DNA of 64,000 nucleotides from an uncultured Muribaculaceae bacterium (GTDB lineage: Bacteria > Bacillota_I > Bacilli_A > RF39 > UBA660): NCBI GenBank assembly GCA_964630365.1, contig CAZVUP010000001.1:3816-67815 (forward strand). Direction: 5' to 3'. Positions 39,831 to 57,795 of the stretch are shown here, piece after piece. The translations under genes and the position numbers were made by a program. The number at the start of each line of letters is the position of its first letter. Position 1 is the first letter of the stretch. The notes under the pieces are model-generated. The model did not search any database and was not told where the DNA came from. It worked only from the letters and a program-made list of their open reading frames with translations.

Positions 39831-39861
39831 AAAAGAAAAAACGTATGAATTTTCATACGTT
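39831..39861 (-). terminator. Terminator after the 559-aa cargo gene
   Basis: ACGTATGA/TCATACGT stem followed by a T-run. Same sequence as the hairpin at 41624-41653. Confidence 0.7.
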
Positions 39862-41539
39862 AAGCCAATGGATAAATTTGATAGGGATTAGAACTACTCC
39901 CATTACCTTCTATAATTATTGTATTAGGATCTAAATACAATGTCGGCCAAATGTTAAAAGCAGAAGATACATTACTATAATTAGCAGATGAATTATTAAC
40001 AATATACCAAGCATTGGTTGCACCACTTTGTCCAGGAGTTATTGTCCATGTTGAATTGTTACTTTTTATCCAAGAAGAATTGGCACATGAAGTATATAAG
40101 GCCATCCAATATATTTGATGATTACAATTTGATAAATCTGCACTATAATAATAATCCGTTGGATACATTAATGCCACTTTTCCAGTCCAAGAAGTATCAT
40201 TACCACTATAAATAGATCCATTTCCATGCTCATAATAATACATATCACTAATCGAAACAAGAGCCAAATTTGGACTTGTAAAATATAAAGTTTCATCAGT
40301 AATGAAATTTCTTGTATCATCATTTTGCAAACCAGTAGTAGTAAAATCACAGTTTGATGTTGCAGCATTATCACCACTATAACACTTACCAGAAGCAGCA
40401 TTCCAATACAAACTACCACCAACACTAGCAGTTTCAAAACCAGAATTCAAAAGCTTATTGGCAGCAGATGTTTTCCAATTATTTGTCGAAGTGTCCCAAG
40501 AGTACTGACCAATAGGTGATTCTCTAAGTAATTTCACTTTACCGCCAAATACTCCTATTATCCGCCATTTTTCACAAGTACTATCACTTTGATTATCATA
40601 GTCCTGGCAATTAAAGTATATATAGTTACTAGGATTAGTGCCATAGTATCTTAAGTCTCCACCATTAGCACTATTTGCTCTACCACCAAACCTGTCATTA
40701 ATAATACCTAAAGATGTAGCTCTATTATATGTGTAATTGCCATTTTTAACCGTATTTATAACAGGATTTGCATAAATACCACTATAAAGTCCATCATCTA
40801 TATATCGGCTTAATGGCCAAAATTTTATTGTCACATCTGATTCTACACTATCTATTTTTACATATCTCTCCTTAATATTATATTGTGATCCAGCTACAGT
40901 ATAATTGTCAGTATTCGTAAAAGTTATACTGGCTCCACCAATTGGCACTCCAGATTGTATAAACTCCATATGATTCATTGCATATGTTTTATAATTATTT
41001 CCTCGAGGAGCATTTACATAGGTAATTGTATGATATCCTCGAAAATCAAATTCTAATAATAAATCAAAAGTTGTGTTATTCGCATCATATGCTCCATCAG
41101 CATATTTCATAGTAATATTAAATGTTTTTACTGCGCCTAAACTACATTTACTACTGTTATTATCATCACATAATGGTTCTGTCATTTGATAATTAGACAC
41201 TTCACAAACTAAATTACTAGGACAACCAGTAATTTCAGCAATTCCCATATTTTGATTTCCAATATTTGTAACTTCAACTGTATAAGTAACTGTTGAATCA
41301 GAATTAGGTAAAGAAAAATTTGGCGTAATATTATTAACATTATAATCTTCACTTATAGCTAACCCATCACTAGTACTACCATTAGGAGTAATATTAGTTA
41401 TACGTATATCTTTAATAATTCTTATTTGAGCACCTAAATCTCTCATCATCAAATTTCTATTCATTGCTGAAAAACCAACACTTATAGAAACTACAATAAG
41501 AAACACATAAATATAAACATACTTTATAAAATGCTTCAT
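39860..41539 (-). CDS. Secreted cargo protein 2 (shared leader/TasA-like N-module plus adhesin-like C-terminal half)
   Basis: Leader ...VGFSAMNRNLMMRDLG. N-module STVTYTVEVTNIGN. C-half CEKWRIIGVFGGKVKLL...W.TSAANKLLN...WTITPG...WPTLYL (the pattern I recall as DUF6273-like). Paralog of 41652-43334. Confidence 0.6.
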   Translation of the reverse strand: MKHFIKYVYIYVFLIVVSISVGFSAMNRNLMMRDLGAQIRIIKDIRITNITPNGSTSDGLAISEDYNVNNITPNFSLPNSDSTVTYTVEVTNIGNQNMGIAEITGCPSNLVCEVSNYQMTEPLCDDNNSSKCSLGAVKTFNITMKYADGAYDANNTTFDLLLEFDFRGYHTITYVNAPRGNNYKTYAMNHMEFIQSGVPIGGASITFTNTDNYTVAGSQYNIKERYVKIDSVESDVTIKFWPLSRYIDDGLYSGIYANPVINTVKNGNYTYNRATSLGIINDRFGGRANSANGGDLRYYGTNPSNYIYFNCQDYDNQSDSTCEKWRIIGVFGGKVKLLRESPIGQYSWDTSTNNWKTSAANKLLNSGFETASVGGSLYWNAASGKCYSGDNAATSNCDFTTTGLQNDDTRNFITDETLYFTSPNLALVSISDMYYYEHGNGSIYSGNDTSWTGKVALMYPTDYYYSADLSNCNHQIYWMALYTSCANSSWIKSNNSTWTITPGQSGATNAWYIVNNSSANYSNVSSAFNIWPTLYLDPNTIIIEGNGSSSNPYQIYPLA

Positions 41540-41623: not shown

Positions 41624-41653
41624 AAGAAAAAAACGTATGAATTTTCATACGTT
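41624..41653 (-). terminator. Terminator after the 560-aa cargo gene
   Basis: Identical ACGTATGA/TCATACGT hairpin and T-run. Confidence 0.7.
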
Positions 41654-43334
41654 ATGCTAGAGGGTATATTTTATAAGGTTTAGCATTTGTACCTTCACCA
41701 TCTATAAATATTGTATTAGCATATAAATACATTGTAGGAAGTACTGAATATCCTTCATAAACATCATTATAATTAGCTTTACTAGAAGATTCAACAATCC
41801 ACATATTACCTGTACCACTATACCCAGGGGTAGTAACCCACATTTTATTACTTTGTTTCATCCACGATGTATTAGCACATCCTGTTCCTAACCAATAAAT
41901 ATTAGCCGTACAATTACTTAAATTAGCACTATAATAATAGTCAGTTGCATAAGGGAGCATAACTTTTCCAGTCCATGATCTTTCAGCACCATTTCTTAAA
42001 CTTCCATTATTATGTTCTTGATAATACATATCACTTATAGATAAAAGAGCATTTTGAGGACCGGTAAAGTAAACGGTTTCATCTGATATAAAATCTTTTG
42101 TATCCCCATCTCTTAAACCATTACTTGTAAAACTACAATCAACTTGTTTAACACTTTGAAAAAGCCCAGCCTCAGTTGTATAACATTTACCACTACTACG
42201 ATTCCAATATAAACTGTTATTAACACTTTCACCACTATACCCTGAATTTAAAAGCTTTCTCATTGCTGATGTTGACCAAACATTACTACTTGGATCATAA
42301 GAAAAAGTCCCAATACTTGTTGTATTAATAATCTTAACTTTACCATTAAAAACACCTATTATTCGCCACTTTTCACAAGTACTATCTGATTGATTAGAAT
42401 AATCACTACAATTATAGTAAATATAATTATTAGCACTTGTTCCATAATATCTGACATTTCCACCATCAGGATCACTTGCTCTACCACCTTCTCTATCATT
42501 AATAAGGCCTAAAGAGGTAACTCGATTATAAGTATAAGAAGAAGAGCCGATAGTACCTCCATTAGAAACCGTACTTTTAGCACCATCAGCATATAATTTA
42601 TTTATATATTCACCAAGTGGCCTAAATCTTATTGTTATATCAGAATTTACAGATGCTGCATTAATTGTTAATGTTTTGTTACTCAAAGAATAATTAGTAC
42701 CATTAACTAGTGTTCCTCCATCATTAGTAATAGACATTCCACCAGCTGGATCATATGCTTGAATAAAATTAATATTATCCATAGCATATGTCTTATAATT
42801 ATTTCCACGAGGAGCATTTACATAAGTAACTGTATGATATCCTCGAAAATCAAATTCTAATAATAAATCAAAATTTGTGTTATTAGCATCATATGCCCCA
42901 GATGCATATTTAACAGTAACATCAAAAGATTTTACTGCCCCTAATTTACATTTTCCACTAGTATCACAAATAGGCTCTGTCATAGTATATCCAGAAACCT
43001 CACATACTAAATTACTAGGACATCCTGTAACATTAGCTATTCCCATTTCTACATTTCCAAAATTAGTAACTTCAATTGTATAACTAACAGTTGAATCTTG
43101 ATTAGGTAAACTTAAACTTGGCGTTACATTACTAACATTATAATCTTCATTCATAGCTAACCCATTACTTGTACTACCGCTAGGAGTAATACCAGTAACT
43201 CTTATATCTTTCTCAATTCTTATTTGAGCACCAATATCACGCATCATTAAATTTTTATTCATTGCCGAAAAACCAATAGTAAGTGTCAGAACTAAAAACA
43301 AAATAACAAAAGGAACAAATTTAAATCTTTTCAT
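41652..43334 (-). CDS. Secreted cargo protein 1 (paralog of 39860-41539)
   Basis: Leader ...IGFSAMNKNLMMRDIG. Same domain order. Blocks such as FDLLLEFDFRGYHT.TYVNAPRGNNYKTYAM are identical between the copies. Confidence 0.6.
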   Translation of the reverse strand: MKRFKFVPFVILFLVLTLTIGFSAMNKNLMMRDIGAQIRIEKDIRVTGITPSGSTSNGLAMNEDYNVSNVTPSLSLPNQDSTVSYTIEVTNFGNVEMGIANVTGCPSNLVCEVSGYTMTEPICDTSGKCKLGAVKSFDVTVKYASGAYDANNTNFDLLLEFDFRGYHTVTYVNAPRGNNYKTYAMDNINFIQAYDPAGGMSITNDGGTLVNGTNYSLSNKTLTINAASVNSDITIRFRPLGEYINKLYADGAKSTVSNGGTIGSSSYTYNRVTSLGLINDREGGRASDPDGGNVRYYGTSANNYIYYNCSDYSNQSDSTCEKWRIIGVFNGKVKIINTTSIGTFSYDPSSNVWSTSAMRKLLNSGYSGESVNNSLYWNRSSGKCYTTEAGLFQSVKQVDCSFTSNGLRDGDTKDFISDETVYFTGPQNALLSISDMYYQEHNNGSLRNGAERSWTGKVMLPYATDYYYSANLSNCTANIYWLGTGCANTSWMKQSNKMWVTTPGYSGTGNMWIVESSSKANYNDVYEGYSVLPTMYLYANTIFIDGEGTNAKPYKIYPLA

Positions 43335-43504: not shown

Positions 43505-44968
43505 TTATTTATTACCCTCTTCTAAATCTACTTCTTTAATTGTTAATAAATATAATTCTTCTTCATGACTAATAAAGAAATAACACTTCTGATGCTTATT
43601 AACAACATAATACTTAATTGGTAATTTTAAATTATCACGTACATCTAATAATTCTTGAAATTTACCAACTTTAATAACATTAATATTATCATTAATAACA
43701 GGAGCTGTTTCAGTCTCAACAATCAAACGATCATATTCTTTTAAAACTTTAGAAACATATTTATCATAATTAGATTTTTTTACCAAAACATACCTGATTA
43801 ATCTAACCAGTTTAATTGTAAAATATATCATTCCAACAAAACAAATAATTGCTAAAAGTGCAAAGAAATAATTAGTAACTGCTAAATGTTCAGTAGCTAA
43901 AACCTGCTTATTTTCATTAACCTCTTTATAATCTAACTTAACACTAATAGCTTTTTCAGATAGTGGGATATTTATAAGCATCTCACTATTGCCTTGTATA
44001 GGATATTTTACATCATATTTACTATTATCTTGTCTTACTCTAAAATAAACAAATAAATTACTCTTTGTCTCAAGACCATAACTAGTTCTAAAATTATTAG
44101 CTAAAGCATTATAGTAATTATAATCAATATTTATACTTTTTCTAATATTATGAGAAGAACTATTGCCAACCTTTTCTGTTACTGGTTCTTGTAAAACATA
44201 TTCTTTTTCAAAAAATAGATTTTTTTCACTATTATCAGTAATTTGAAGCTTAGCAACTATATCATATGTTAAATCAAGATCAACCATCTTATCAATATTA
44301 AAATTATAATCAAAATCTACATTAATATGATCAATAAGATTAGCTACATATAACATGTCTTTTCCTAAGTGATCCGTTTCATAGAAATTATTCTCTTTTA
44401 AATAAACTTGATAATCTAAGTTACTTTTTTCATTATAACTAATTGCATCACCATTAATTGTTGAAAAAGATTTTAGAATAAAGAATAAAGTCAAACCAAA
44501 TGATAATAATAACAATACTACCATTTTTCCTACACGATATTCATAACTAACATATTTTCCTTCATTTGGAATATGATTTTCAACTTTAGTTACATTTCCA
44601 CTATCTTGAAGTTTATTACTAGTATCAACACTTTCTTTTTCAGCTATTTGTTCAGATATCTCTGCAAGACTATCATCATTTGAAACAACATCATTAGAAT
44701 CCGGACTAAATGCATTAATAGACTCTTTTATCTGTCTTACTAAATCTTCAGATGTAATAGTTTCATCCATATAATCATCAACAATTTTATCAACATCTAA
44801 ATTGTTTTCGCTGGAATTCATATCAATTTCTTCAAGAGCTTTATTTATCTCTTTAACAAGATCTTCAGAACTCATAGTCTTTTCCAGTTCGTCATCTTTT
44901 CTAAGTGTCTCTTCAAGAGAATTCAACAATTCATTTGTCTGTTTCTTTTTTTTCTTGTGCCTAGACAT
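43505..44968 (-). CDS. Bitopic accessory membrane protein B (DUF5305-like) with an acidic cytoplasmic N-extension
   Basis: NEKSNLDYQVYLKENNFYETDHLGKDMLYVANLIDHINVDFDY aligns with 49406-50434. Order is TM, about 200-aa ectodomain, TM, cytoplasmic tail. ATG 44968 with GGGAGG upstream. Confidence 0.55.
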   Translation of the reverse strand: MSRHKKKKKQTNELLNSLEETLRKDDELEKTMSSEDLVKEINKALEEIDMNSSENNLDVDKIVDDYMDETITSEDLVRQIKESINAFSPDSNDVVSNDDSLAEISEQIAEKESVDTSNKLQDSGNVTKVENHIPNEGKYVSYEYRVGKMVVLLLLSFGLTLFFILKSFSTINGDAISYNEKSNLDYQVYLKENNFYETDHLGKDMLYVANLIDHINVDFDYNFNIDKMVDLDLTYDIVAKLQITDNSEKNLFFEKEYVLQEPVTEKVGNSSSHNIRKSINIDYNYYNALANNFRTSYGLETKSNLFVYFRVRQDNSKYDVKYPIQGNSEMLINIPLSEKAISVKLDYKEVNENKQVLATEHLAVTNYFFALLAIICFVGMIYFTIKLVRLIRYVLVKKSNYDKYVSKVLKEYDRLIVETETAPVINDNINVIKVGKFQELLDVRDNLKLPIKYYVVNKHQKCYFFISHEEELYLLTIKEVDLEEGNK

Positions 44969-44985
44969 CCACAAAAGCCTCCCTT

Positions 44986-46113
44986 CTATAATTCATTTAA
45001 CCAAACAGTTGGCATTCCTATAAAAGGAATTTTATGATCAACTGTTCCTATTATCATATCTTCAGTTATTACCCAGTTATCTTCATCATCATTACTATCA
45101 CCTTTACTATAGAAATAATATTTACCATTATCCTCTATAATATTAACTAAACGATGAACAATAATAACTCCCTCATATCTATAAGCAATTACTTGACCAG
45201 GTTTTAATTTCCCTATATGCTTATCGATCTTTTCAATAATAACTACATCACCTCGAGAAATATTAGGTTCCATACTACCACTTGCTATCGCAATTGCATA
45301 ATAATGGAAATAACCCGAAGTAAAATATACTAATACTATTGTCAACAAAACAGGCACAATATATGCACCTAAAAGCTTTTTATTATAATTTCTAGTTAAG
45401 AATTCATCATAATCTTTTGATAAAAATTTATGAACTCTAAATAAGAAACCAATAGGTAACAATAATTGAATAATAGATGTCAAATATTCATCTGGATTAG
45501 GTATTATTGGAAATACATAACGATATAGTCCAATTACTAAAGCAAAGAAAATTATAGGCTTATAACCAATTTTTAATGTTAAATAACAATAAACAATATT
45601 GCTTGCTATGACTGGTAATAAAGTCAATGCTATAAATATAAAGACTTTATAATTTGAAGAAAAATCAGATGCAGTAATTGCTACTGTAATATCTAAAAAT
45701 ATAAATAGCAACCAAGTCATTACATATAAAAGCCTATTACCTTCAGCTTTAGACATAATCATATAACGAAGTATTTCTTTTAAAACAATAGTAAAAGTTA
45801 TTGGTAATATAAATGTTTTTAATCCATATAAATTATAATAGCCATCAACTTTTGCAAAGCTTATAAAGATTCCCAAAAGATAAAACAAAATAAAGAATAT
45901 TATCAAATAAATAATAGTATCTAAAATAACATCTTTCGCATATCTATGTTTATCTTTTTCAAAACCAAATAAAAATTTAAAAGCTATAAGAACTACTATA
46001 AGAAATAATAACATTTTATATCCTGATAATATATTCCATACAAAACTATTTAGAATCAAGAATAAAAAAATTAGTACTTCAAAAGTCAATAAACGACTAT
46101 ACCCCTTTTTCAT
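44986..46113 (-). CDS. Polytopic membrane domain fused to a SipW-type (ER-type S26) signal peptidase, copy B
   Basis: About 250 aa with about 7 TMs, then IASGSMEP (Ser), IVHRLV (His), SKGDSNDDEDN, IPFIGMPTVWLNE. Confidence 0.7.
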   Translation of the reverse strand: MKKGYSRLLTFEVLIFLFLILNSFVWNILSGYKMLLFLIVVLIAFKFLFGFEKDKHRYAKDVILDTIIYLIIFFILFYLLGIFISFAKVDGYYNLYGLKTFILPITFTIVLKEILRYMIMSKAEGNRLLYVMTWLLFIFLDITVAITASDFSSNYKVFIFIALTLLPVIASNIVYCYLTLKIGYKPIIFFALVIGLYRYVFPIIPNPDEYLTSIIQLLLPIGFLFRVHKFLSKDYDEFLTRNYNKKLLGAYIVPVLLTIVLVYFTSGYFHYYAIAIASGSMEPNISRGDVVIIEKIDKHIGKLKPGQVIAYRYEGVIIVHRLVNIIEDNGKYYFYSKGDSNDDEDNWVITEDMIIGTVDHKIPFIGMPTVWLNEL

Positions 46114-46201: not shown

Positions 46202-46855
46202 TTAATCTACAGAACCATATAGTAAAGAAACATCACCAAAAGCTACAGTGAAATCACCATCAGCTCTATCTCCACCTTCAGCATAAGTAATAGTTACTAC
46301 AACATCTTCACTAGCACCAACTGCTAATGCATGACTAGATATTGAACCATTTGATGAAGTATATGCAGATCCATCACCAACTTTAACACTGATAGAAATA
46401 TCATCACAAGCAGCGGTAACTAAAGCAGCAGTTGTTCCATTACCTGGAGTACAAACTTTAGCAGCAGCAGGACTAGAACCATTAACATTATTAAATGTTA
46501 CTCCATTTAAATAAGCTTGTAATTCACCAGTATTCTTAGCCTTAAAAGTATAAGTAGCAGTTTGTCCTGGTGCAGTAAAATTAGCTTTTAAACCAGTGAT
46601 ATCATGGTCACTATTGTTAATAGTAGCAGTATCAGCAGTAAAACCACTTGCTGGAGATAATGTTGGAGTTACAGAAGTACCATTTTCAGTACTATTAGTA
46701 AATACAACATTGAAAGTATTTTGATCAGGGCTAACAGCAGCACTAGACTTAATATTCAAAGTTTGAGAAAATGCTGCAAAACCTAATGATAAACCTCCAA
46801 CAGCTAACAATAAAGCAACAATTGCCATAACTTGAGCTCTTCTATTTTTTTCCAT
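46202..46855 (-). CDS. TasA/camelysin-like secreted protein B (candidate major subunit)
   Basis: Leader ...LSLGFAAFSQTLNIKSS (compare TasA GGTWAAFNDIKS). Ala/Thr/Ser/Gly-rich beta module with PGQTATYTFKAKNTGEL. AGGAGGTG RBS. Confidence 0.6.
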   Translation of the reverse strand: MEKNRRAQVMAIVALLLAVGGLSLGFAAFSQTLNIKSSAAVSPDQNTFNVVFTNSTENGTSVTPTLSPASGFTADTATINNSDHDITGLKANFTAPGQTATYTFKAKNTGELQAYLNGVTFNNVNGSSPAAAKVCTPGNGTTAALVTAACDDISISVKVGDGSAYTSSNGSISSHALAVGASEDVVVTITYAEGGDRADGDFTVAFGDVSLLYGSVD

Positions 46856-47067: not shown

Positions 47068-49416
47068 TTATTCAGATTTTATAAAGTGCATTCCCGTCCA
47101 CACTTGAACTCTATCACCAGGATTATAATAAGTATTTTCAGAAGTACTATACCATCTTCCAGTAATTAATTTAGATAATGTATAATAATCCCCTTCTTTA
47201 ACCAAATAATTACTTTTAATCAACATATTGTCCTGATCAGTAGTAACCATCCAATATCTTTCATTATTTTTCATTATTGGCGGTAACAACATATTATCAG
47301 CTATAATACTATTTTTAATATAATCTTTAAATAACGCTAAATTCGTTCGATTGTCATTAAGAAGAATTGCTAACTCGCCTGCTCTAAATCCTTTATACAT
47401 ATAATATGGTAATACATCTTCTAAGTATTTATAATCAATAGTTTTAACTACTCTATCATTACTCCATGTAATATCATCATTAAACTTATATAAATTCGTA
47501 ATATCCGTATATCTATCTGTCGTTATAAAATCATCAGATACTATATTATAATATCTAGTTGACGCTACAAAATAATATTTTTTATTCTCATTAACCACCT
47601 CAATATTAGTAACACTAACAGTAGTTAACTTATCACCATTTAATTTCTTAACATTAGTACCAATATGAAAATGTTCTCTATCCTTAAAATTAACAAACTT
47701 ATTCTCATCGGCACTAAAGAATGAATGATCATTAAAAATACTAATAGTTGAATTATCACTAAAAGTAATTTTTATATATGAAGGAGTTGTATAAGCTTTT
47801 TCAATCCATAATGGATATTCTGGAACAAGTCTACCTAATTCATAGCTCCATACCATTAATAAATCATCATATTTAATATCTTCTATATTCTTATACTTAC
47901 CATTAGCTAGTAAAACTTTTGTACCTTCAATTAAGCAACTACCACCTTCAGCAGTTATAACAACATCACCAACAACATTTGGAATCGATACTCGACCATT
48001 ATTATATGTATAACTACCAGTACCAAGAGTTTGTCCGCCCATTGTAACAGTAATAGACTCAGGTAAAGTATTATTACCACTAGCTGTCATTGTACCAGTA
48101 TAAGTTTGATTACGATTTACTGTCGAAGTATTAGGACAATTCAAATTAGTACAACTAAAACTAACATTAAAAACCCATTTATAAGCATCCGATGTGCTAC
48201 GTGAAGCGTGCCCACGACCAGTCGTTGCTGAATTAACATAATCGCTACCACTATTACCACTTTCATCTGTACCACTAACAACAAAATAATATGTTCCCTC
48301 ACTAAGACCAGTAACAACTAAACTCTCACTATCATCACTAGTATTCATAGTTTTAACAACACTTCCACTATTATTAAAAACAGTCACCGTATAGAAAGAA
48401 ATATTTGTATCATCCTCACCACTCCAAGTAACAAGAACAGATCCAACATCATCTTGAATAACAGCATTAACATTACTAATGAAAGGTGGTGTTGTATCAA
48501 CATAAACAACTGTCTTATCAACCAATAAAGAAATTCTACCAGCATTTATTGCACTATCACCAGTAGGAGTAACATACACAGTAACACGCTCTTCATCAAC
48601 ATTATATTCATTACCTGCTAACTCTTTTACATAAAAAGTATAATTAGAATCTCCTCCAGCTGTAATAGTCTGTGTTGGATATGGATTTCCATTAGCATCT
48701 ACTATTTGAAAGTGATCACTACTAATTGAAATATCAAAAGTACTATCATAACTATAAGTACTTAAAACCCTAACAGAAAACTCTGCTGTATCAGGATTAC
48801 CCCTTAAATCACCTGTCGTTGGAGCATTCATAGATGCCAAAATATGAGCCGTTGTATCTTCTGCTACTTGTGGCGCAAAATCTCCATTAATAACAAAAGT
48901 ATCAGTATCTTGCTCACTAGATGGATTAGTAAAAGTAAACGATACCGTAAACGTCTTTGACTCCCCTGAAGATATAACATCACCAGCGGCAATACCAGTT
49001 ATTGTATATCCTACATAAGAAGAATCAATAAGTTCTCCATTACTCTGTCTATTAACAGTCATTGGATAACTAAGACTCGTATACACAAAATCATAAAAAC
49101 TATCATTTTGAATAGTAACATCAAACACTGCAACATATGTAGCACTCTGATCAGCAACAGTCGTAAATTTAAGTCCAAAATCAATAGAATTACCATTATT
49201 AATTACAGGATTAGAAATAGCATTAGTGTGCGTTCCTTGAGTAACACTCTTAATATAAATATCTCCCCCAGCTTTAAAGATAGATCCCCCACTTAAATTC
49301 AAAATTTGCCCATAAAGAGCAAATCCCACAGTCATAAAAAGTAATACAAAAACAGCAAAAAAAGAGATTATAACGCTGCTTTTTAATCTTTTCTTCTCAA
49401 CATACCTATTCATCAT
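47068..49416 (-). CDS. Large secreted cargo protein: shared leader/TasA-like module, Fn3-like and Ig-like domains, Hint domain, unknown C-terminal domain
   Basis: Leader ...VGFALYGQILNLSGG. Fn3-like PPFISNV...VTWSG...GTYYFVVSGTDESGN. Hint block A GSCLIEGTKVLLANGKYKNIEDIKYDDLLMV (Cys codon 47935-47937). Block B-like ISIFNDHSFF. ATG 49416/49413 after GAGGA. Confidence 0.65.
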   Translation of the reverse strand: MMNRYVEKKRLKSSVIISFFAVFVLLFMTVGFALYGQILNLSGGSIFKAGGDIYIKSVTQGTHTNAISNPVINNGNSIDFGLKFTTVADQSATYVAVFDVTIQNDSFYDFVYTSLSYPMTVNRQSNGELIDSSYVGYTITGIAAGDVISSGESKTFTVSFTFTNPSSEQDTDTFVINGDFAPQVAEDTTAHILASMNAPTTGDLRGNPDTAEFSVRVLSTYSYDSTFDISISSDHFQIVDANGNPYPTQTITAGGDSNYTFYVKELAGNEYNVDEERVTVYVTPTGDSAINAGRISLLVDKTVVYVDTTPPFISNVNAVIQDDVGSVLVTWSGEDDTNISFYTVTVFNNSGSVVKTMNTSDDSESLVVTGLSEGTYYFVVSGTDESGNSGSDYVNSATTGRGHASRSTSDAYKWVFNVSFSCTNLNCPNTSTVNRNQTYTGTMTASGNNTLPESITVTMGGQTLGTGSYTYNNGRVSIPNVVGDVVITAEGGSCLIEGTKVLLANGKYKNIEDIKYDDLLMVWSYELGRLVPEYPLWIEKAYTTPSYIKITFSDNSTISIFNDHSFFSADENKFVNFKDREHFHIGTNVKKLNGDKLTTVSVTNIEVVNENKKYYFVASTRYYNIVSDDFITTDRYTDITNLYKFNDDITWSNDRVVKTIDYKYLEDVLPYYMYKGFRAGELAILLNDNRTNLALFKDYIKNSIIADNMLLPPIMKNNERYWMVTTDQDNMLIKSNYLVKEGDYYTLSKLITGRWYSTSENTYYNPGDRVQVWTGMHFIKSE

Positions 49417-50434
49417 AATCCTCTTTTTCAATTACATATTCCCAAGCCATATGTTCAAATATAATAACAAATCTTGTTCTATTCTTTTCTTGAACATAAT
49501 TAATTGGCGTTCTAACGTCATTATAAACTACTAACAAATCATCAAAAGAACTAACTTCTACTAAATTAAATTTACTTAGTTTTAATTCTTTTACTTTTAC
49601 CATAATACTACCATAATCATTAGTAATCTTAATAACATTTCCATTATAACTATCTAATTTCTTATTCTTAGCTAACCATACAAAATGCTTAAACACAACA
49701 TAGAATAATCCAAAGATATCTATTAAGAATAATATCTTAAAGATAATATGCTTTAAATCATTAAGTCTTACTTTACGAGTTATTTCTTTTTGTTTATTAT
49801 TTTGATCAGTATTAATAACACCCTCTACTGCTACTTTAGATAAAGGTATTTTTACACTTATTTCAGAATTAACAGGAATAGTATCTTCAGCACTAACTTG
49901 TGGTTTACCATCAACAACAAGTGCAAGTTTCAAGAATCCATCACTACTCAAATTATAAGTATCAACAAATGATAATAATAATTCATTATATTTCTGATAA
50001 TCAATATTAATTGACTCAGATATTTCACAATCTTCTTCACCAAATAAATATTTAGTTCTGATATCAGTTAAATTAAAACTCTTCTCCCAATAAGTACCAA
50101 CTTGATTATTTGTCTTTTCAGCACTAACTGTTGCTACTATATGATATTTTAATTCACCATCAACAGGAGTATTAAATAATACTTTATATTTATAATCAAC
50201 AACTAAATGATCTATCAAACTAGTAATATAGGTTTTATCTTTACCAAGAAAAGGTTGATCAAAGAAATTATTTTCTTTTAGATATACTTTATAATCAATA
50301 CTATTATCTTCATTGTAAGAGTATTTTATATCTTGGCAATCATTGAAACCAATGGAATAAAATACTAAACCAAGAATGACTAGTACTGCAACATATACCC
50401 AAAAATAATCTGTTGACCTTTTCTTTACTAGCAC
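49406..50434 (-). CDS. Bitopic accessory membrane protein A (DUF5305-like)
   Basis: NEDNSIDYKVYLKENNFFDQPFLGKDKTYITSLIDHLVVDYKY. TMs at about residues 10-28 and 229-250. GTG start with AAGGAGTG upstream. Overlaps the next gene by 11 nt. Confidence 0.55.
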   Translation of the reverse strand: MLVKKRSTDYFWVYVAVLVILGLVFYSIGFNDCQDIKYSYNEDNSIDYKVYLKENNFFDQPFLGKDKTYITSLIDHLVVDYKYKVLFNTPVDGELKYHIVATVSAEKTNNQVGTYWEKSFNLTDIRTKYLFGEEDCEISESINIDYQKYNELLLSFVDTYNLSSDGFLKLALVVDGKPQVSAEDTIPVNSEISVKIPLSKVAVEGVINTDQNNKQKEITRKVRLNDLKHIIFKILFLIDIFGLFYVVFKHFVWLAKNKKLDSYNGNVIKITNDYGSIMVKVKELKLSKFNLVEVSSFDDLLVVYNDVRTPINYVQEKNRTRFVIIFEHMAWEYVIEKEDYDE

Positions 50435-50439: not shown

Positions 50440-51594
50440 TCACTCCTTTCTTAAAAATTCATTAAACCAAACCGTTGGCCACCCTATATATTTACAAACA
50501 TAGATAACTTTACCAATAATATCTTCTTCTTCAATTAAATAACCATCTTCATTGTTATTGGCATCTCCTTTAGTATAGAAGAAAACTTGTTCCTCATATT
50601 CAACCTTTTTAACAACCCTATGAGCAATAATTTTACCACTCTTTTGATAGATTAATATTTCCCCAACTTCAGTATCTTTAGGATTTTTCTTATCAACCAA
50701 TACTGCATCTCCCTTATAGTAAACAGGTATCATTGAGTTTGATGCTATCGCAATCAATTGATATCTAAGTATTCCAGAAACTAGTATTGTTAAAATAATT
50801 AAAGCTACAACTAAAGGTCTAGTCATAAACCCAACACTAAATTTATTCTCTTTTCCTCTTCTTCTATCTAATCTATTTATTTTAACGATATATTTTCTAT
50901 CTGCTAAATAAATAACAAAAGGTATTAATATATGCATAGTCCCATATAAATACTCATTTAAATTAGCGAAGAATGGAAATATATATATATAACATTTAGC
51001 CAATACCTTGAATACTAAACTAGGTAATAGACCAAAATTATATGTCATATAACTACATAATAATTCCTGTGCAATTATAGGAAAAATAGTTATAGAAATA
51101 AAAATGAACCATTTAAGTTTATTATCAAGAAATCCTATATTCATCTCTAATAATATATTCAATATAATTAACAAAATAGTTAATATAACAATTTCACTTT
51201 TATTTATATAAGTACTTTTAATAAGAGTATATCTAAAAACCTCTTCAACCACTAAAAATATAAGTACAGGAATAAATCCATTTAATACTTTATCAACATC
51301 AAGTGAAAATGCTGTTTTAGAAAATCCAATTAAAATTCCAAGCAAAAAACAAATAAAGAAAAATCCTACAAAAACAGAAATTTCTATTTTTATAGCTGTC
51401 TCTCTATCAAAAGAATTATCCTTCTTATAACCTAAGAAGTAAATTGCCGGAATAAGTAAAATTACTAAAAAGCATACAATTACAAAGCTTCTACCAAGAG
51501 GATTATTATAGTTAGACATTAAAAGGAAATATAATACTTCAAATATTAATAAAGCTATCTCAAATATATAAATCCTTTTAAGTCTAACCTTCAT
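50440..51594 (-). CDS. Polytopic membrane domain fused to a SipW-type signal peptidase, copy A
   Basis: About 260 aa with about 7 TMs, then IASNSMIP, IAHRVV, TKGDANNNEDG, YIGWPTVWFNE. Confidence 0.7.
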   Translation of the reverse strand: MKVRLKRIYIFEIALLIFEVLYFLLMSNYNNPLGRSFVIVCFLVILLIPAIYFLGYKKDNSFDRETAIKIEISVFVGFFFICFLLGILIGFSKTAFSLDVDKVLNGFIPVLIFLVVEEVFRYTLIKSTYINKSEIVILTILLIILNILLEMNIGFLDNKLKWFIFISITIFPIIAQELLCSYMTYNFGLLPSLVFKVLAKCYIYIFPFFANLNEYLYGTMHILIPFVIYLADRKYIVKINRLDRRRGKENKFSVGFMTRPLVVALIILTILVSGILRYQLIAIASNSMIPVYYKGDAVLVDKKNPKDTEVGEILIYQKSGKIIAHRVVKKVEYEEQVFFYTKGDANNNEDGYLIEEEDIIGKVIYVCKYIGWPTVWFNEFLRKE

Positions 51595-51618
51595 AATCAC
51601 ACCATCTTTATATTAAAA

Positions 51619-52197
51619 TTAAGCTACATCTTCATAAAGAAAAGATCCATTAATTGTAATTGTTTTATCTTCTGTTGGTAAATCTGCTTGTGGAATATCT
51701 TCTTTATTTTTATAAGTAATAGTTAATGTTACATCTTTTGTAGCACCATTTTCATTAATTACATTAGATAAACCTGTTGCATTAGTAGTATAATCTGCTC
51801 CATCATAAGTAAGTTTACACTCAGCAAATTTTTGTTGATCAGCTGTTAAACCACTAAAATTAATAGTAGTAAGTTTTGCTTTAATAGTACCATCATTAAC
51901 AACTTTCCACTTTGCAACATAAGTATCACCTGGTTTATTCAAAGTTACATTGAAAGTAAAATCAGTATTTGTTAAACTACTTGATTGAGCAACATCAGCT
52001 GTACCACTTTCTTGTAAAGTTCCTGATTTATAATGAACATTCCAAGCATTTTTGAAAACAGCTTTACTTGAAGTACCACTAGCTCCACCACCGATATTTA
52101 ATGTTGTAGAATATAATGCGAAACCTACAGCCATGAATAATAGTACTGCTACCAATAAAATAATAGTCTTTCTTTCACTCTTTTTACTTTTTCTCAT
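51619..52197 (-). CDS. TasA/camelysin-like secreted protein A (candidate major subunit)
   Basis: Start MRKSKKSERK (ATG 52197, AGGAGG 7 nt upstream). Leader ...VGFALYSTTLNIGGG. FTFNVTLNKPGDTYVAKWKVVNDGT resembles TasA NLSNLKPGDKLTKDFQFENNGS. Confidence 0.6.
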   Translation of the reverse strand: MRKSKKSERKTIILLVAVLLFMAVGFALYSTTLNIGGGASGTSSKAVFKNAWNVHYKSGTLQESGTADVAQSSSLTNTDFTFNVTLNKPGDTYVAKWKVVNDGTIKAKLTTINFSGLTADQQKFAECKLTYDGADYTTNATGLSNVINENGATKDVTLTITYKNKEDIPQADLPTEDKTITINGSFLYEDVA

Positions 52198-52245
52198 CTT
52201 CATACCTCCTCTATTATATAAATTTAACATTTTTCGACATATTTC

Positions 52246-52324: not shown

Positions 52325-53149
52325 TTATTTTTTGTTGTATATATATACTTTATCAACTTCAACCATTTCATCTTGACCGGTGTATTCTTCAAATTTTATG
52401 TCTTTCTTATGCGGAGGTGCATAAACAGCTACTTGCCCATGCTCAGTTAAATGAGGTTGTACCTTATCATCTAAAAAACTAGTTAATGTAGTAAATTGCT
52501 CATTACTAAAATAGTCTGTTATATTCGACATAAAAACAGCATCATATTTTTCATCAGAACTAAGTTTAGAAATAAAGTCATGAAATGTAGCATGATGTAA
52601 TCTAACATCTACCCTTTCCAAGTTATCCCTTGTAACATAATAGTTTTCATCAAAAGCAAAACATCTAAGTCTACTATCAATAAAGAATTGTAAGAAGATA
52701 AATCTAGATTTATTATTTTTTAAATTTCCGCTTTGATATAATGTATCCCAAAATATTAGTGAATCTAAGTCCAACTCTTCTCTAATTTTTAAATATATAT
52801 TCAAATCAAATATCTCAGAAGGATCTCTAAAACCAAAAAAGTATGCAAATTCATCTTGACTTAAAGTTTTTAAAGCCGCTAATTTTAACTTTATCAAATA
52901 TATCTGAAATCTATTTTTATCAAAAGCATCTACTTCTTTTGCTCCACTATAAACAGCTTGTAAGATATGATCTCCACTGCCAGCAACAGTTAATACTTTC
53001 GCACCATCTAACTTAAACTTATCATAATAAATTGATAAAGCTTCATTTGTTCGAATATAAATTTTTCCATAATTTTTTGGATATTTCTGAAAATAAACAT
53101 CATTTAACATATTTATAGCAACTTCAATATCTCGTGGTAATTCCTTCAT
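52325..53149 (-). CDS. DUF3419/BtaA-like SAM-fold protein, array member 7
   Basis: IYIRTNEALSIYY, KVLTVAGSGDHILQAVYSGAKEVDAFDKNRF, KLKLAALK, FWDTLY, YDAVFMSNITDY, VAVYAPP. Confidence 0.6.
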   Translation of the reverse strand: MKELPRDIEVAINMLNDVYFQKYPKNYGKIYIRTNEALSIYYDKFKLDGAKVLTVAGSGDHILQAVYSGAKEVDAFDKNRFQIYLIKLKLAALKTLSQDEFAYFFGFRDPSEIFDLNIYLKIREELDLDSLIFWDTLYQSGNLKNNKSRFIFLQFFIDSRLRCFAFDENYYVTRDNLERVDVRLHHATFHDFISKLSSDEKYDAVFMSNITDYFSNEQFTTLTSFLDDKVQPHLTEHGQVAVYAPPHKKDIKFEEYTGQDEMVEVDKVYIYNKK

Positions 53150-53162
53150 AAGGCACCCCCAT

Positions 53163-53975
53163 TTATAATTTACTTTTTATATAAACTTTTTGCTTATCTA
53201 AATAAGTATCTTCAGTATAGTCTTCGTATTGTACTACATCACTCAGAGTCGGTACATATACTGCCATTTTGCCACCTGTTTCTAAGTTTTTACTTAAAAC
53301 ATGCAATACATAATCCTTAAATTCATTCTTTTCTACAAAAGTTAACCAATCATAAATATTAGATAGAAATATTGCTTTATAAGAATCTGTAAGCACTCCA
53401 CCTAAATCAAATAAATCACTCAAATAATAGCCAATAGATACATCATCTATTTTTTCCCTAATAGAATAATAATTTGCACTATCCCTGTAACTATCTATCC
53501 CCAAATCATGACGTTGTGGTCCAAAAACAATTCTATGAATATTTTTTATATTACCATCTTGATATAAACTATCCCAAAACAACTGAGCATCATCAGCTAA
53601 ATAATCAGAAAACTTCTCATAAATTCTTAGGCTCATAAAATCAAAAGCTCCATTATTTAATGAAAAAAAGTTTTCAAAATCTTCATGACTTAATGTTTTT
53701 ATAGCAGCAACCTTTAATTTAACAACATATAAAGCAAATCTATTATGATCAAACACATCTACTTTTTTTGCTCCTTCATGTACTGCTTGCAAAAGATGAT
53801 CTCCACTTGCCGCAACTGTTAAAACTTTTTCACCAGAAATTGAAAATTTTTTATAATAAGTTGATATTTGCTCATTTGTATTTAAAAAAGCTTTTGAATA
53901 AGTAGACGGAAAAATATAATTTATATCATTTAAAGTTCTAAGCGCAACTGCAATATCTTTTTTTACTTGATTCAC
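53163..53975 (-). CDS. DUF3419/BtaA-like SAM-fold protein, array member 6
   Basis: Same motif set (FLNTNE, VLTVAASGDHLLQAV, VDVFDHNRF, KLKVAAIK, FWDSLY, AIFLSNIYDW, MAVYVP). GTG start with GAAGGGGT SD. Confidence 0.6.
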   Translation of the reverse strand: MNQVKKDIAVALRTLNDINYIFPSTYSKAFLNTNEQISTYYKKFSISGEKVLTVAASGDHLLQAVHEGAKKVDVFDHNRFALYVVKLKVAAIKTLSHEDFENFFSLNNGAFDFMSLRIYEKFSDYLADDAQLFWDSLYQDGNIKNIHRIVFGPQRHDLGIDSYRDSANYYSIREKIDDVSIGYYLSDLFDLGGVLTDSYKAIFLSNIYDWLTFVEKNEFKDYVLHVLSKNLETGGKMAVYVPTLSDVVQYEDYTEDTYLDKQKVYIKSKL

Positions 53976-53977
53976 TT

Positions 53978-54802
53978 TTAACCCCTTCTCTCATAAACAT
54001 ATACTTTTCTATCTAACTCTTGTTGACCAATATATTTTTCATAATTAAATCCCTCATTATGATGCGGAACATATACTGCTACTCTAGCTTCTGGATTTAA
54101 ATGGCTATTTAAATCCTTCATAATAAATCTAGGATAATTTTTTTTACCCCATCCCATTAAATAATCATAAATATTAGATAAAAATACGGCACCATATTTT
54201 AGATCACTTTGAATACTATCTAAAACACCATAAATATCACTATGACAATAAGTGATTTCTACATTTTCTAAAAGTGTTTTTGTCATCCAGAAATTATCTT
54301 TCTCATCATATCTTTCAGCTGTTCTATCAAATCTAGAACTTAAAAAAGTCATATACCCATGCCAACTAATAAACCCAGCCTTATACATTGCATCCCAAAA
54401 CATAGCTGTTTCTTCATCTAAATAATCACGTATTTTTTTATAAAGATTAAAACTAAAATTCTCCCTAAATTTAGCATAATTATAAAAATTAAGAAATTCT
54501 TTTTGACTTAAAGCTTTAACAGCAGCAATCTTTAATTTAGCTGCATATATAGCAAACTTATTTTTATCAAATGAATCAATTCTCTTCGCCCCATAATAAA
54601 CAGCTTGTAATATTTGATCTCCTCCAGAAGAAACCGTTAAAACATTTCCTCCATCTATTGGAAAAAATCTATAATATTCAGATAAATTTTCATTAGTATT
54701 AACATAAATTGTTCCATACCCATCAGGAAAAGTATATGGACAAGGTGAATGTAAACAATCAACACCAATTTTTATATCTTTTTCTACTTCTTGTAAACTC
54801 AC
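53978..54802 (-). CDS. DUF3419/BtaA-like SAM-fold protein, array member 5
   Basis: Same motif set (YVNTNE, VLTVSSGGDQILQAV, IDSFDKNKF, KLKIAAVK, FWDAMY, AVFLSNIYDY, VAVYVP). GTG start with AAGAGGGTG SD. Confidence 0.6.
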   Translation of the reverse strand: MSLQEVEKDIKIGVDCLHSPCPYTFPDGYGTIYVNTNENLSEYYRFFPIDGGNVLTVSSGGDQILQAVYYGAKRIDSFDKNKFAIYAAKLKIAAVKALSQKEFLNFYNYAKFRENFSFNLYKKIRDYLDEETAMFWDAMYKAGFISWHGYMTFLSSRFDRTAERYDEKDNFWMTKTLLENVEITYCHSDIYGVLDSIQSDLKYGAVFLSNIYDYLMGWGKKNYPRFIMKDLNSHLNPEARVAVYVPHHNEGFNYEKYIGQQELDRKVYVYERRG

Positions 54803-54804
54803 AA

Positions 54805-55659
54805 TTACACCCTCTTAAATTCTTTTTCTAACTTTTCTCCTCTTTTTAAAGTATAAACAACTCCCTCTTCTCCATGAGAATCATTAATTGAACAAATCTC
54901 TGGATCAGGATTATCAAATGGTGCATATACAGCCATTACCCCATCATCAGTAAGATATTCAGAAAGTTCTACAATTAAATCAGAAAACTTTTCTCTTTCA
55001 TCTAAAATTAACCAATCATAAATATTTGATAAAAATATGGCATCATATTTTCTATTCTTATCCAAACAAGCCACTAATTCATATAAACTTAAATTAAAAA
55101 AATTAATTTCAGAATTATTTAATCTTTTCTTTGTCTTAGTATAAAAATAAGGACTAGAAAATCTTCTAAAACCATAATCTAAACATTTTGTAAATAAAGT
55201 ATATGACCAAGCTACAAGATTATTTCTATTATCTGAAAGCTGACCTTCAAAATACATCGCATCCCAGAAAGCTTTAACATCATTATCTAAATAGATTCTA
55301 ATTCGCATATAAGTATTAGTATTCAAAAAACCTTTTAAACTATAATAATAATTTATAAATTCTTCTCTTTCTAGTACTTTCAAAGCAGTTATTTTAAGTT
55401 TTGCAGCATATATAGCTATCTTATTTTTATCAAAGGCATCTACTTCTCTAGCACCATTACAAACAGCTTGTAATATATGATCTCCTCCTGAAGAGACAGT
55501 AAGAACTCTTCCACCTTTACATGGAAAAGCTCTATAGTACTTTGATAAACCTTCATTAGTATTAAAATAAACACTACCGTATCTATCATCCATTTTAAAC
55601 TTATGTGTCTTATCTAGAATAGAAAGTCCCTCTTTTATGTCCTCTTCTATATTTGACAT
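54805..55659 (-). CDS. DUF3419/BtaA-like SAM-fold protein, array member 4
   Basis: Same motif set (YFNTNE, VLTVSSGGDHILQAVCNGAREVDAFDKNK, KLKITALK, FWDAMY, AIFLSNIYDW, MAVYAP). Its ATG abuts the stop of the upstream small gene. Confidence 0.6.
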   Translation of the reverse strand: MSNIEEDIKEGLSILDKTHKFKMDDRYGSVYFNTNEGLSKYYRAFPCKGGRVLTVSSGGDHILQAVCNGAREVDAFDKNKIAIYAAKLKITALKVLEREEFINYYYSLKGFLNTNTYMRIRIYLDNDVKAFWDAMYFEGQLSDNRNNLVAWSYTLFTKCLDYGFRRFSSPYFYTKTKKRLNNSEINFFNLSLYELVACLDKNRKYDAIFLSNIYDWLILDEREKFSDLIVELSEYLTDDGVMAVYAPFDNPDPEICSINDSHGEEGVVYTLKRGEKLEKEFKRV

Positions 55660-56022
55660 TTATTTTACCTTCTCTTCAGAAAGTCCTTCTAAATGCAATA
55701 AAACATCTTCTAAATGCTTGGTCTCATATGCTAAAGAACGTCCATATTCATTTAATGCTACATATTGACGAACTAATGAATTATCTTGTATTAATTTTTT
55801 TGCTTCTTCTGCTATTTCAACAAAACTAGAAAAAGTATCATCCTCCGTATTTAAAACCATATCAATGCTCAATCCATTATAAATAAGATAAGTACTTATC
55901 TCTACATATCTTTTTAATGAACTATCATCTAGTTTTCTAAGATTTTCTAAATCACCAATTACACTAGACAATAAAGCATTTTTTTCTCTATAAACTCTTT
56001 TTACATTTTTATAATTATCCAT
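55660..56022 (-). CDS. Small helical cytoplasmic protein embedded in the paralog array
   Basis: 120 aa with no TM or signal peptide and helix-favouring composition. AGAGGGGA RBS. Its stop TAA is directly followed by the ATG of member 4. Confidence 0.45.
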   Translation of the reverse strand: MDNYKNVKRVYREKNALLSSVIGDLENLRKLDDSSLKRYVEISTYLIYNGLSIDMVLNTEDDTFSSFVEIAEEAKKLIQDNSLVRQYVALNEYGRSLAYETKHLEDVLLHLEGLSEEKVK

Positions 56023-56114
56023 TAAACATATCCCCTCTACTAGGTAATTAATAAAAAATAGAAATAGAATAAACTATATATAAAATATAACTACCCCTCT
56101 TTTTATTGCTAGCT

Positions 56115-56143
56115 ATAATATCATATTTTCTTAAAAAAGTAAA
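56115..56143 (-). promoter_or_regulatory. Candidate internal promoter in the only sizeable gap of the array
   Basis: TTTACT, 17 nt, (TGa)TATTAT on the minus strand within the 143-nt gap. Confidence 0.3.
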
Positions 56144-56165
56144 GAAAAACAGAAACTAATCTAAA

Positions 56166-56978: not shown

Positions 56979-57795
56979 TATTATCACCTCTTCGATACAC
57001 ATAAATTTTTCCCCTATCAAAATGCTTTTGATTTTTATAATTAGCAAAAGTTAAATTCGCCTCAGCAACAGGAGCATAAGCAACAATAACCCCATCATCT
57101 GTTAGATGCTTACTACACTCTTCACTTATAAATCTATAAAATCTTTTTCTTTTAAGAAAAGATAAATGATCATATATATTTGATAAAAATATCGCATCAT
57201 ATAATTCGTCATCAGAAAGATTATCAACAAATGCATGCAAATCAGAATGATCATAACTAATTAAAGCTGAATCTAACTTAGATCTAGTATCATCATATCT
57301 ATCAGGACTACAATATGAGTCTAGACCATCATCACTAAATCTATAATAATTAATTATATTATCATAAAACTTATCAAGCCAACCTCTAACATACATTGTA
57401 TCCCAAAAAACTAAGACATCATCATCTAAATAATCTCTAATTTTACTATATATTTGTTTATTTAAAAATTTCTCATCATTCCAATCAAAAAAACTAATAA
57501 AATCTTCTCTTGAAAGCGCTTTAATAGCGGTTATTTTTAATTTGGCAAAATATAATTGAAATTTATTCTTATCAAATGTATCAATTCTTTTAGCACCATT
57601 AGAAACAGCTTGCAATATATGATCACCACTAGATGTCACAGTAAGAACTTTCCTACCCTCTAAAGGAATATATTTATAGTATCCTGAAACAAATTCATTT
57701 GTAGAAATATATATATAGTTATAATCACTAGGAAAATGCTCATTCCCATGCAAGATAGCTACTCCAACACTTATATCATAGTCTAAACTACTCAT
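56956..57795 (-). CDS. DUF3419/BtaA-like SAM-fold protein, array member 2
   Basis: YISTNE, VLTVTSSGDHILQAVSNGAKRIDTFDKNKF, KLKITAIK, FWDTMY, AIFLSNIYDH, IVAYAP. Confidence 0.6.
   Translation of the reverse strand: MSSLDYDISVGVAILHGNEHFPSDYNYIYISTNEFVSGYYKYIPLEGRKVLTVTSSGDHILQAVSNGAKRIDTFDKNKFQLYFAKLKITAIKALSREDFISFFDWNDEKFLNKQIYSKIRDYLDDDVLVFWDTMYVRGWLDKFYDNIINYYRFSDDGLDSYCSPDRYDDTRSKLDSALISYDHSDLHAFVDNLSDDELYDAIFLSNIYDHLSFLKRKRFYRFISEECSKHLTDDGVIVAYAPVAEANLTFANYKNQKHFDRGKIYVYRRGDNNENSRSL

Follow-up and report, generated by a model that had tools for sequence, protein, structure and literature searches.

A signal peptidase I fused to a conserved eight-helix membrane domain lies in a four-gene cassette with putative fibre subunits in uncultured gut Bacilli

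We analysed a stretch of 64,000 nucleotides (nt) from an uncultured bacterium that is labelled Muribaculaceae and placed by GTDB in the RF39 lineage of Bacilli_A (GenBank assembly GCA_964630365.1, contig CAZVUP010000001.1, positions 3,816 to 67,815 of the forward strand); this whole stretch is called the window below. It contains two genes, each encoding a signal peptidase I (SPase I) whose catalytic domain is preceded by a long membrane domain, the N-domain. The fusion is a real, conserved and uncharacterised feature, though not an unreported one. The main clues to its function are a conserved four-gene cassette around the peptidase gene and a signal motif shared by the secreted proteins of the locus; both were absent from a sequence-only reading of this DNA made earlier and were found in the present follow-up analysis. 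With moderate confidence, we explain the fusion protein as a dedicated peptidase for TasA/AbpX-like fibre subunits, the N-domain of which would dock the signal-anchor of the substrate and which would work in complex with a DUF5305 protein.

Fusion peptidases

The window has a G+C content of about 28% and nearly all of its genes are on the minus strand, including both fusion genes:

50440..51594, minus strand: fusion peptidase copy 1, 384 amino acids (aa) from the ATG at 51594, composed of the predicted eight-helix N-domain, a basic cytoplasmic linker, an anchor helix and the S26 catalytic domain
50872..51594, minus strand: N-terminal eight-helix domain of copy 1, residues 1-241
50443..50769, minus strand: S26 catalytic domain of the endoplasmic reticulum (ER)/archaeal type of copy 1, residues 276-384
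44986..46113, minus strand: fusion peptidase copy 2, 375 aa, uninterrupted, with the N-domain at residues 1-236 (45406-46113)

The open reading frame (ORF) of copy 1 spans 50440-51600 without interruption and is open from a GTG at 51600 (386 aa). The ATG at 51594 agrees with the N-terminus of the nearest homologues (MKVRLKR...). Both genes had been placed exactly by the sequence-only reading, at 50440-51594 and 44986-46113, and both frames are open. The scores for TIGR02228, the archaeal/ER-type SPase I family, are 84.5 bits for copy 1 and 76.4 bits for copy 2 against a cut-off of 51.85. Every S26 motif quoted earlier was recovered: SNSMIP at 285, AHRVV at 324 and KGDAN at 342 in copy 1, SGSMEP at 278, VHRLV at 319 and KGDSN at 337 (the KGDSNDDED box) in copy 2, and an IG(W/M)PTVW(F/L)NE tail in both. 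The catalytic residues are the nucleophile S287, the general base H325, D344 and D350 in copy 1 (384-aa numbering), and the nucleophile S280 and the general base H320 in copy 2. In both copies the general base is His, not Lys, which is the ER-type signature, and the GDxNxxxD box is intact. The catalytic Ser and His and both Asp residues are 99-100% conserved among 216 full-length homologues.

In a Foldseek search against PDB, the full-length AlphaFold2 model of copy 1 best matched human SEC11C/SEC11A in the signal peptidase complex (SPC) (7p2q_A and 7p2p_A, E ~1e-4), with a template-modelling score (TM-score) of 0.61-0.63 normalised to the target; LexA/UmuD and streptococcal SipA (4n31) followed. 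The TIGR02228 scores and the SEC11 match support the earlier assignment of the peptidase domain to the SipW/Sec11 type. The scores for the SipW equivalog NF046067, 50.6 bits for copy 1 and 61.8 bits for copy 2, are far under its cut-off of 190. Judged by its residues, each ORF is a single gene for a catalytically intact Ser-His SPase I, and the two copies, which probably work like SipW, are not orthologues of it. Copy 1 and copy 2 align with each other from end to end (31% identity, E = 2e-50). Their N-domains alone are 29% identical over 213 aa (E = 8e-21), in agreement with the earlier suggestion that the two are homologous.

With the N-domain as query, a word-seeded search returned exclusively fused proteins, 372-384 aa long. 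An exhaustive HMMER search with an N-domain profile against 1.84 billion cluster representatives (50% identity) gave matches in 1,399 clusters at E 1e-3, 886 at E 1e-10 and 253 at E 1e-30. Among the best 150 representatives, 121 have a length of at least 340 aa, and most are 372-390 aa. The remaining 29, which are shorter than 340 aa and were looked at in the search for free-standing N-domains, mostly stop at arbitrary internal positions, like fragments at contig ends. A scan of one genome per species with full-length alignment detected relatives in 166 stretches, and 80 of these loci were retrieved; counts of gene context below refer to 81 loci, namely these 80 and the window. In the 80 species-level genomes, 86 ORFs match the N-domain, and 85 of them also contain the catalytic C-domain. 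The lone exception, in locus L022, is a gene split into a 113-aa and a 274-aa piece. Another five ORFs, which match just the C-domain, encode separate short peptidases.

A distinct case is locus L083 (contig at 3.9x coverage), where an N-domain-only ORF of 235 aa (1953-2660) has a small subunit gene before it and an rsmG-like gene immediately after it, with no S26 domain and no DUF5305 gene; this is probably a decayed locus or a chimeric assembly. This ORF and the split gene of L022 are what could be cited for the idea, raised by the sequence-only reading as a possible refutation, that the long ORF merges two genes through a stop or frameshift lost in assembly. We give this idea almost no credence: no in-frame stop was found, the one-ORF build at 372-390 aa recurs in both window paralogues, in nearly all N-domain ORFs of the other genomes and in most of the best 150 representatives, and the short representatives break off in the manner of contig-end fragments. 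From these comparisons, the fusion is neither a chance event nor an assembly artefact.

The nearest relative among the retrieved loci, with 94% identity, is in a metagenome-assembled genome (MAG) of a 'Bacilli bacterium' from goat jejunum. The other hosts are uncultured gut Bacilli, 'Tenericutes' and 'Mycoplasma/Clostridium sp. CAG' genomes, and eight are Saccharibacteria MAGs. The latter (Candidatus Saccharibacteria/Nanosyncoccaceae; L008, L009, L010, L015, L019, L021, L024 and L025) have the same four-gene cassette, and their fusion proteins are 32-36% identical to that of the window. This distribution suggests that the cassette has moved from one phylum to another among host-associated bacteria with small genomes; several of the loci carry the label Muribaculaceae or Bacteroides, and mis-binning is possible. 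The family has no name in Pfam or NCBIfam, and public annotation reads just 'signal peptidase I'.

Cassettes and their secreted proteins

Each fusion gene of the window lies in a cassette. The other members, in gene order, are as follows; the fusion gene stands second in both cassettes.

Cassette 1
51619..52230, minus strand: small secreted protein 1, putative fibre subunit; probable ATG at 52197, 192 aa; signal-anchor ending FMAVGFA/LYSTTLNIGG (the slash here and below marks the predicted cut)
49406..50434, minus strand: DUF5305 protein 1, 342 aa; PF17231 at 32.2 bits against a cut-off of 29; transmembrane (TM) segments 11-29 and 230-248 around a domain of about 200 aa
47068..49431, minus strand: large secreted protein, 787 aa; signal motif MTVGFA/LYGQILNLSGG; an N-terminal region related to the small subunit, immunoglobulin (Ig)-like repeats, and a Hint domain from Cys499

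Cassette 2
46202..46855, minus strand: small secreted protein 2, 217 aa; signal motif LSLGFA/AFSQTLNIKSS
43505..44974, minus strand: DUF5305-like protein 2, 489 aa, 30% identical to DUF5305 protein 1; TM segments 152-170 and 369-387
41652..43334, minus strand: 560-aa secreted protein; variant signal motif LTIGFS/AMNKNLMMRD
39860..41539, minus strand: 559-aa secreted paralogue; signal motif ISVGFS/AMNRNLMMRD

The genes of cassette 1 are separated by 5-24 nt or overlap. The order of a small secreted protein (180-250 aa), the fusion, DUF5305 and a large protein (500-850 aa) is nearly invariant across the 81 loci; 79 of them have a homologue of DUF5305 and 67-77 have one of the small protein. The DUF5305 protein is predicted to be an accessory subunit of the peptidase. 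Its two-TM layout agrees with the published one, in which two TM helices accompany an extracellular beta-sandwich and a cytoplasmic domain. Neither a chaperone nor an usher gene is in the cassette, and no sortase gene is at the window locus.

The five secreted proteins of the two cassettes each have one N-terminal hydrophobic segment that ends in [ML][ST][VI]-G-F-[AS] and is followed by an amphipathic strand, x-[YF]-S-x-T-L-N-I-x-G. Among all translated frames of the 64-kb window, the G-F-(A/S) signal motif was found five times and was confined to the N-termini of these proteins. The same architecture was found in 145 homologous proteins: a K/R-rich n-region, about 20 hydrophobic residues, [ML][ST][VI]-G(100%)-[FY](94%)-[AS](100%), and then x-[YF]-S-Q-T-L-N-I-N-G-T-A-T-V. 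The G at -3 and the A/S at -1 comply with the signal-peptidase rule. Position 2 of the mature protein is aromatic (Y or F) in 87% of the 145 proteins, with an alternating L-x-I-x-G after it. The most frequent residue of a column accounts for 60% in the signal region and 41% in the mature part. Since the signal is thus more conserved than the mature part, the reverse of what is usual for Sec signals, it is probably recognised specifically.

The AlphaFold2 model of the small protein has a predicted local distance difference test (pLDDT) value above 85 through its beta-sandwich core. At E <= 0.001, Foldseek gave one match to this model, the TasA fibre (8aur_A, E = 2.1e-4); the cannula protein CanA is listed as well, and TM-scores are low. 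In a relative encoded in locus L082, the camelysin/TasA family PF12389 appears below threshold (E = 0.019, 15.3 bits against a cut-off of 22.5). On these sequence and model comparisons, the small proteins may be read as TasA-superfamily subunits near the AbpX clade, and the cassette most likely builds TasA/AbpX-like surface fibres.

The membrane domain

The AlphaFold2 model of copy 1 was built on 11 homologues and has a mean pLDDT of 76.5 and a predicted template-modelling score (pTM) of 0.67; pLDDT is mostly 75-93 across eight helices and the anchor. In the 386-aa numbering, the N-domain helices are 2-28, 34-56, 66-91, 102-129, 134-152, 161-188, 191-207 and 216-240. A basic linker modelled with low confidence comes next, and the anchor helix that belongs to the peptidase itself (257-275) then precedes the beta-rich catalytic domain. 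The model thus has eight plus one, that is nine, predicted membrane helices ahead of the catalytic domain and lacks a C-terminal TM segment; a Kyte-Doolittle scan detected seven or eight of the nine. The long N-terminal membrane domain described in the earlier reading is therefore real, and its estimate of about seven helices has to be raised to eight plus the anchor. The positive-inside rule is satisfied by the basic N-terminus MKVRLKR, Lys/Arg clusters in loops 2-3 and 4-5, and about nine basic residues after helix 8. In the predicted topology, the N-terminus is inside, the K/R-rich linker is cytoplasmic and the catalytic domain is outside.

Conservation was computed on the 216 full-length homologues. 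The following residues stand out (386-aa numbering, equal to the 384-aa number plus 2):

G88, 100%, end of helix 3
G92-F93, 91%, outer loop 3-4
E120, 99%, helix 4
R123, 98%, helix 4
P174, 88%, helix 6
P209, 100%, outer loop 7-8
P212, 97%, outer loop 7-8
Y217, 89%, outer loop 7-8
P227, 95%, helix 8

In the 384-aa numbering the conserved set of copy 1 is G86, G90-F91, E118, R121, P172, Y182, P207, Y215 and P225. E120 and R123 are predicted to be in the cytoplasmic half of helix 4. Because the conservation of these G, E..R, P..P and P positions equals that of the catalytic Ser, His and Asp, selection on the N-domain appears as strong as that on the active site. At residue 210 (384-aa numbering; 50965-50967), copy 1 has Ala (FPFFANL) where 97% of the 216 homologues have the second Pro of P-x-x-P-N-L. 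Two relatives at 96-98% identity (P0001 and P0002) have this Pro too.

The N-domain matched no family in Pfam-A (2025) or NCBIfam (June 2026), first with 11 members and then with 72. At E <= 10, these 72 members (<38% identical to one another) gave only sporadic noise from hydrophobic segments, for example NapE and the EPS_sugtrans TM region, and no meaningful score recurred. Matches to SPC25 in these scans are likewise noise (E = 2.6, 2 of 72 members). The N-domain profile had no match among PDB sequences, and none of the top 50 Foldseek matches of the full-length model covers the N-domain. The domain is therefore common but uncharacterised; the earlier view that it fits no known family stands, and it did not turn out to be a characterised common one. 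An internal duplication of four plus four helices was considered and rejected (hhalign probability 1%).

The count of eight helices and the invariant Glu and Arg of helix 4 loosely recall motif 1 (EExxxR) of the CPBP family, and the N-domain might then be a second enzyme, either an intramembrane protease (CPBP/Rce1- or signal-peptide-peptidase-like) that clears the signal-anchor or a transferase that modifies the new N-terminus. We regard this as very improbable. The spacing is E-x-x-R, not E-x-x-x-R, and the N-domain has no conserved His, Asp pair, Ser or Cys; PF02517 and exosortase models were unseen among the families listed at E <= 10 for the 72 members, and no protease structure matches the N-domain among the top 50 Foldseek matches. 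The CPBP/Rce1 reading, which calls for the motifs EExxxR, FxxxH and HxxxN/D, was rejected on the spacing, the missing His and the absence of PF02517. The spacing and the missing His, Cys, Ser and Asp pair also speak against a rhomboid or aspartyl protease, and an exosortase/archaeosortase was rejected on the lack of an invariant Cys or His and of any such model among the first 25 families listed from each of Pfam and NCBIfam.

Proposed role of the fusion peptidase

In the mechanism that we propose, the fusion peptidase would be the dedicated processing enzyme of the secreted proteins of its locus and would cut after G-F-A, with small residues at -3 and -1. The cleavage would bare a donor strand at the new N-terminus whose second residue is aromatic, as it is in TasA and AbpX. 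By donor-strand complementation the subunits would then polymerise into a surface fibre, of which the large secreted proteins may be tip, adhesin or anchor components. The eight-helix domain would be an intramembrane docking platform that grips the long conserved signal-anchor laterally. Its buried Glu-x-x-Arg in helix 4 would be near the cytoplasmic side of the membrane, at the level of the signal's basic n-region, and its conserved G-x-x-x-G-F and P-x-x-P-N-L-x-x-Y loops would be on the outer face, close to the cleavage site. Together with DUF5305, the fusion peptidase would form a multi-subunit holoenzyme that is functionally akin to the eukaryotic SPC.

Part of this architecture has been described in the AbpX system (Sleutel et al., bioRxiv 10.64898/2026.01.04.697558, January 2026). 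According to that preprint, a 'structurally distinct' SPase I with ten transmembrane helices is dedicated to AbpX in bacteria and archaea, and genes for minor subunits, for tip proteins and for a DUF5305 protein described as 'SPase I accessory' are found in AbpX loci too. Fusions of DUF5305 to SPase I occur in some cases, and the arrangement is compared there with the eukaryotic complex. The extra helices are mentioned in a single sentence, and no function is proposed for them (bioRxiv 10.64898/2026.01.04.697558). The architecture itself, a ten-TM SPase I with DUF5305, is thus already reported. The window shares with the AbpX system a TIGR02228-type SPase I with a polytopic extension, beside genes for DUF5305 and for TasA-superfamily subunits (which in the window are weak matches), and subunits that start with an amphipathic donor strand whose position 2 is aromatic. 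It differs in that the cassette has a large Hint-domain protein instead of LPXTG/SLH anchors and sortases. The AbpX hosts are Thermoproteota, Chloroflexota and cultured Clostridia, whereas the hosts here are uncultured gut Bacilli and Saccharibacteria.

Two distant members of the N-domain family connect the two systems, as their loci are of the AbpX type with several small subunits. P0194 (438 aa, E = 6e-11) is encoded in a locus with five small 'GFAYA/HW...' proteins (cut at the slash) and DUF5305, and has an additional C-terminal hydrophobic helix that would bring the total to ten. The locus of P0192 has a GGDEF protein and DUF5305.

Several points weigh against the explanation given above. 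The window peptidases have nine helices and no C-terminal TM segment, whereas the AbpX peptidase has ten helices. The window proteins probably belong to the class in the preprint as a nine-helix variant from gut Bacilli, but the link to the peptidases named there (WP_338249487.1, A0A1M6GRN4 and A0A2R7Y7S8) is indirect and is drawn through P0194 and P0192. The TasA match of the small protein is weak, with a TM-score of 0.31. The best match of the small-protein profile among PDB sequences is AbpX itself (9sj2_C) and is also weak (E = 0.08), although its register favours the explanation: the alignment begins at AbpX residue 3 and places W2 on the conserved Tyr, with the cleavage after G-F-A. No window protein gives an above-threshold Pfam match, PF12389 (camelysin/TasA) included. 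The acidic residue at mature position 4 that marks the AbpX clade, and that is linked there to calcium-dependent assembly (bioRxiv 10.64898/2026.01.04.697558), is absent from the window substrates, and Q, S, T and N predominate there in the 145 proteins; the small proteins are therefore not typical members of the AbpX clade. Finally, the docking role of the N-domain is a best inference from conservation and predicted topology alone.

The helices might instead serve as a non-specific scaffold that steadies the enzyme, recruits DUF5305 and perhaps thins the bilayer like SPC12/SPC25, so that a long h-region is cut; the signal would then not be read by the N-domain. DUF5305 is nearly always encoded by the next gene, and elsewhere it is fused to SPase I in a form likened to the eukaryotic SPC. 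The h-regions are long, about 17-20 residues, and the N-domain has few polar residues, as such a scaffold would lead one to expect. We consider a scaffold rather unlikely, because residues conserved at 95-100%, namely the buried Glu/Arg pair and the Pro-rich outer loops, exceed the needs of a passive anchor, and because the strongly conserved signal region of the substrates implies a reader.

The N-domain could also be an assembly platform that holds the membrane-anchored subunit at the fibre base and couples cleavage to donor-strand insertion, so that the protein would be a peptidase-polymerase. Its logic parallels that of the pilin-specific sortases and of SipA/LepA, a signal-peptidase homologue required for streptococcal pilus polymerisation, and a homologue of that kind (4n31) is among the structural matches. 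The same signal-anchor is on every fibre component, chaperone and usher genes are missing from the cassette and a sortase gene from the window locus, and some related loci have SipW-like extra genes that look catalytically dead. Nevertheless, AbpX and TasA polymerise in vitro without such a factor, and nothing in the data shows the N-domain touching mature subunits. This role seems to us unlikely, and more so than that of a scaffold.

Among the three roles considered for the N-domain in the sequence-only reading, docking, translocation and polymerisation, docking suits the evidence best and translocation has no support. Extending the docking proposal, the N-domain might be a new type of intramembrane sorting-signal receptor that makes the peptidase a dedicated machine for fibre maturation and assembly. 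It would read [ML][ST][VI]-G-F-A via its Glu/Arg pair and outer Pro-rich loops, form with DUF5305 a prokaryotic counterpart of the SPC, and may link cleavage with the insertion of the donor strand on the cell surface of gut Bacilli and Saccharibacteria with small genomes. This extended form is offered tentatively, as a possibility that may well fail. If true, the receptor role would be comparable to that of PilD for type IV pilins and of exosortase/archaeosortase for their sorting signals.

Comparison with other systems

In Bacillus subtilis, the gene for the ER-type Ser-His peptidase SipW is likewise beside the gene for a fibre subunit that it processes, TasA. The donor strand exposed in TasA, A-F-N-D..., is comparable to the (A/L)-(Y/F)-S-x strand predicted here. 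Unlike the window peptidases, SipW has no polytopic domain, its model being 189 positions long, and no TapA is encoded in the window. The tapA operon is not known to contain a DUF5305 gene. The haloarchaeal tafi (Tat-fimbriae) locus pairs a peptidase, TafD, with TafG, a DUF5305 protein, and deletion of TafD abolishes the fibres. The locus thus resembles the window in having a signal peptidase and DUF5305 together in a locus for donor-strand fibres. Unlike the fusion peptidase, TafD has no eight-helix N-domain; four TM helices are predicted for it, together with an extracellular domain at the C-terminus, and its substrates use the Tat pathway.

The eukaryotic SPC (SEC11, SPC22/23, SPC25 and SPC12) includes the nearest structural match of the catalytic domain. 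It is also alike in placing a Ser-His peptidase amid extra TM helices and a beta-sandwich accessory subunit. In the eukaryotic complex, however, separate subunits contribute the extra helices, and no sequence relationship is detectable.

Other observations on the loci

DUF5305-like protein 2 has an acidic N-terminal extension of about 150 aa (36 D/E against 20 K/R) that DUF5305 protein 1 lacks. The Hint (intein-like) domain of the 787-aa protein gave weak matches to Hom_end_hint and intein_Nterm, and its Cys499 is encoded at about 47935-47937. The N-terminal motif of this domain, C-L-[VI]-E-G-T-x-[IV], is kept in 28 of 34 large downstream proteins of other genomes. It would be unusual for a fibre tip or anchor protein to contain a module for self-cleavage or self-ligation, and such a module might replace sortase-type anchoring.

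Short SipW-like extra genes (193-203 aa, two TM segments) are directly upstream of the cassette in some related loci (L014:3497-4096, L020:6083-7220 and L045:4303-4914). In L014 and L020 (6639-7220), the His and GD boxes are lost; these proteins look catalytically dead and recall the pilus-assembly factor SipA/LepA.

A terminator-like hairpin, AACGTATGAAAATTCATACGTT, follows each of the two secreted paralogues of about 560 aa in cassette 2, at 41632-41653 and 39840-39861. Since the hairpin is identical after both, the pair appears to be a recent tandem duplication. Directly upstream of the fibre cassette, at 52325-58625 on the minus strand, are seven tandem paralogues of about 270-290 aa that match DUF3419 (BtaA-like, S-adenosylmethionine-dependent fold). 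This array was considered as a part of the cassette and rejected, because it recurs only in the same-species locus L002. A promoter scan was uninformative (98 sites against 96 expected).

Conclusion

TasA-like donor-strand fibres are an emerging system of biofilm formation and adhesion in both bacteria and archaea, and the locus described here gives a handle on how their subunits are selected, processed and retained on the surface without a chaperone or an usher. The family, which comprises more than 1,000 clusters, joins a strongly conserved, uncharacterised eight-helix domain to a processing peptidase, and it offers testable residues, E118, R121 and the P-x-x-P loop, together with a defined substrate motif. 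Naming the domain and the signal motif would improve the annotation of uncultured gut Bacilli and Saccharibacteria and would flag probable surface fibres in these organisms.

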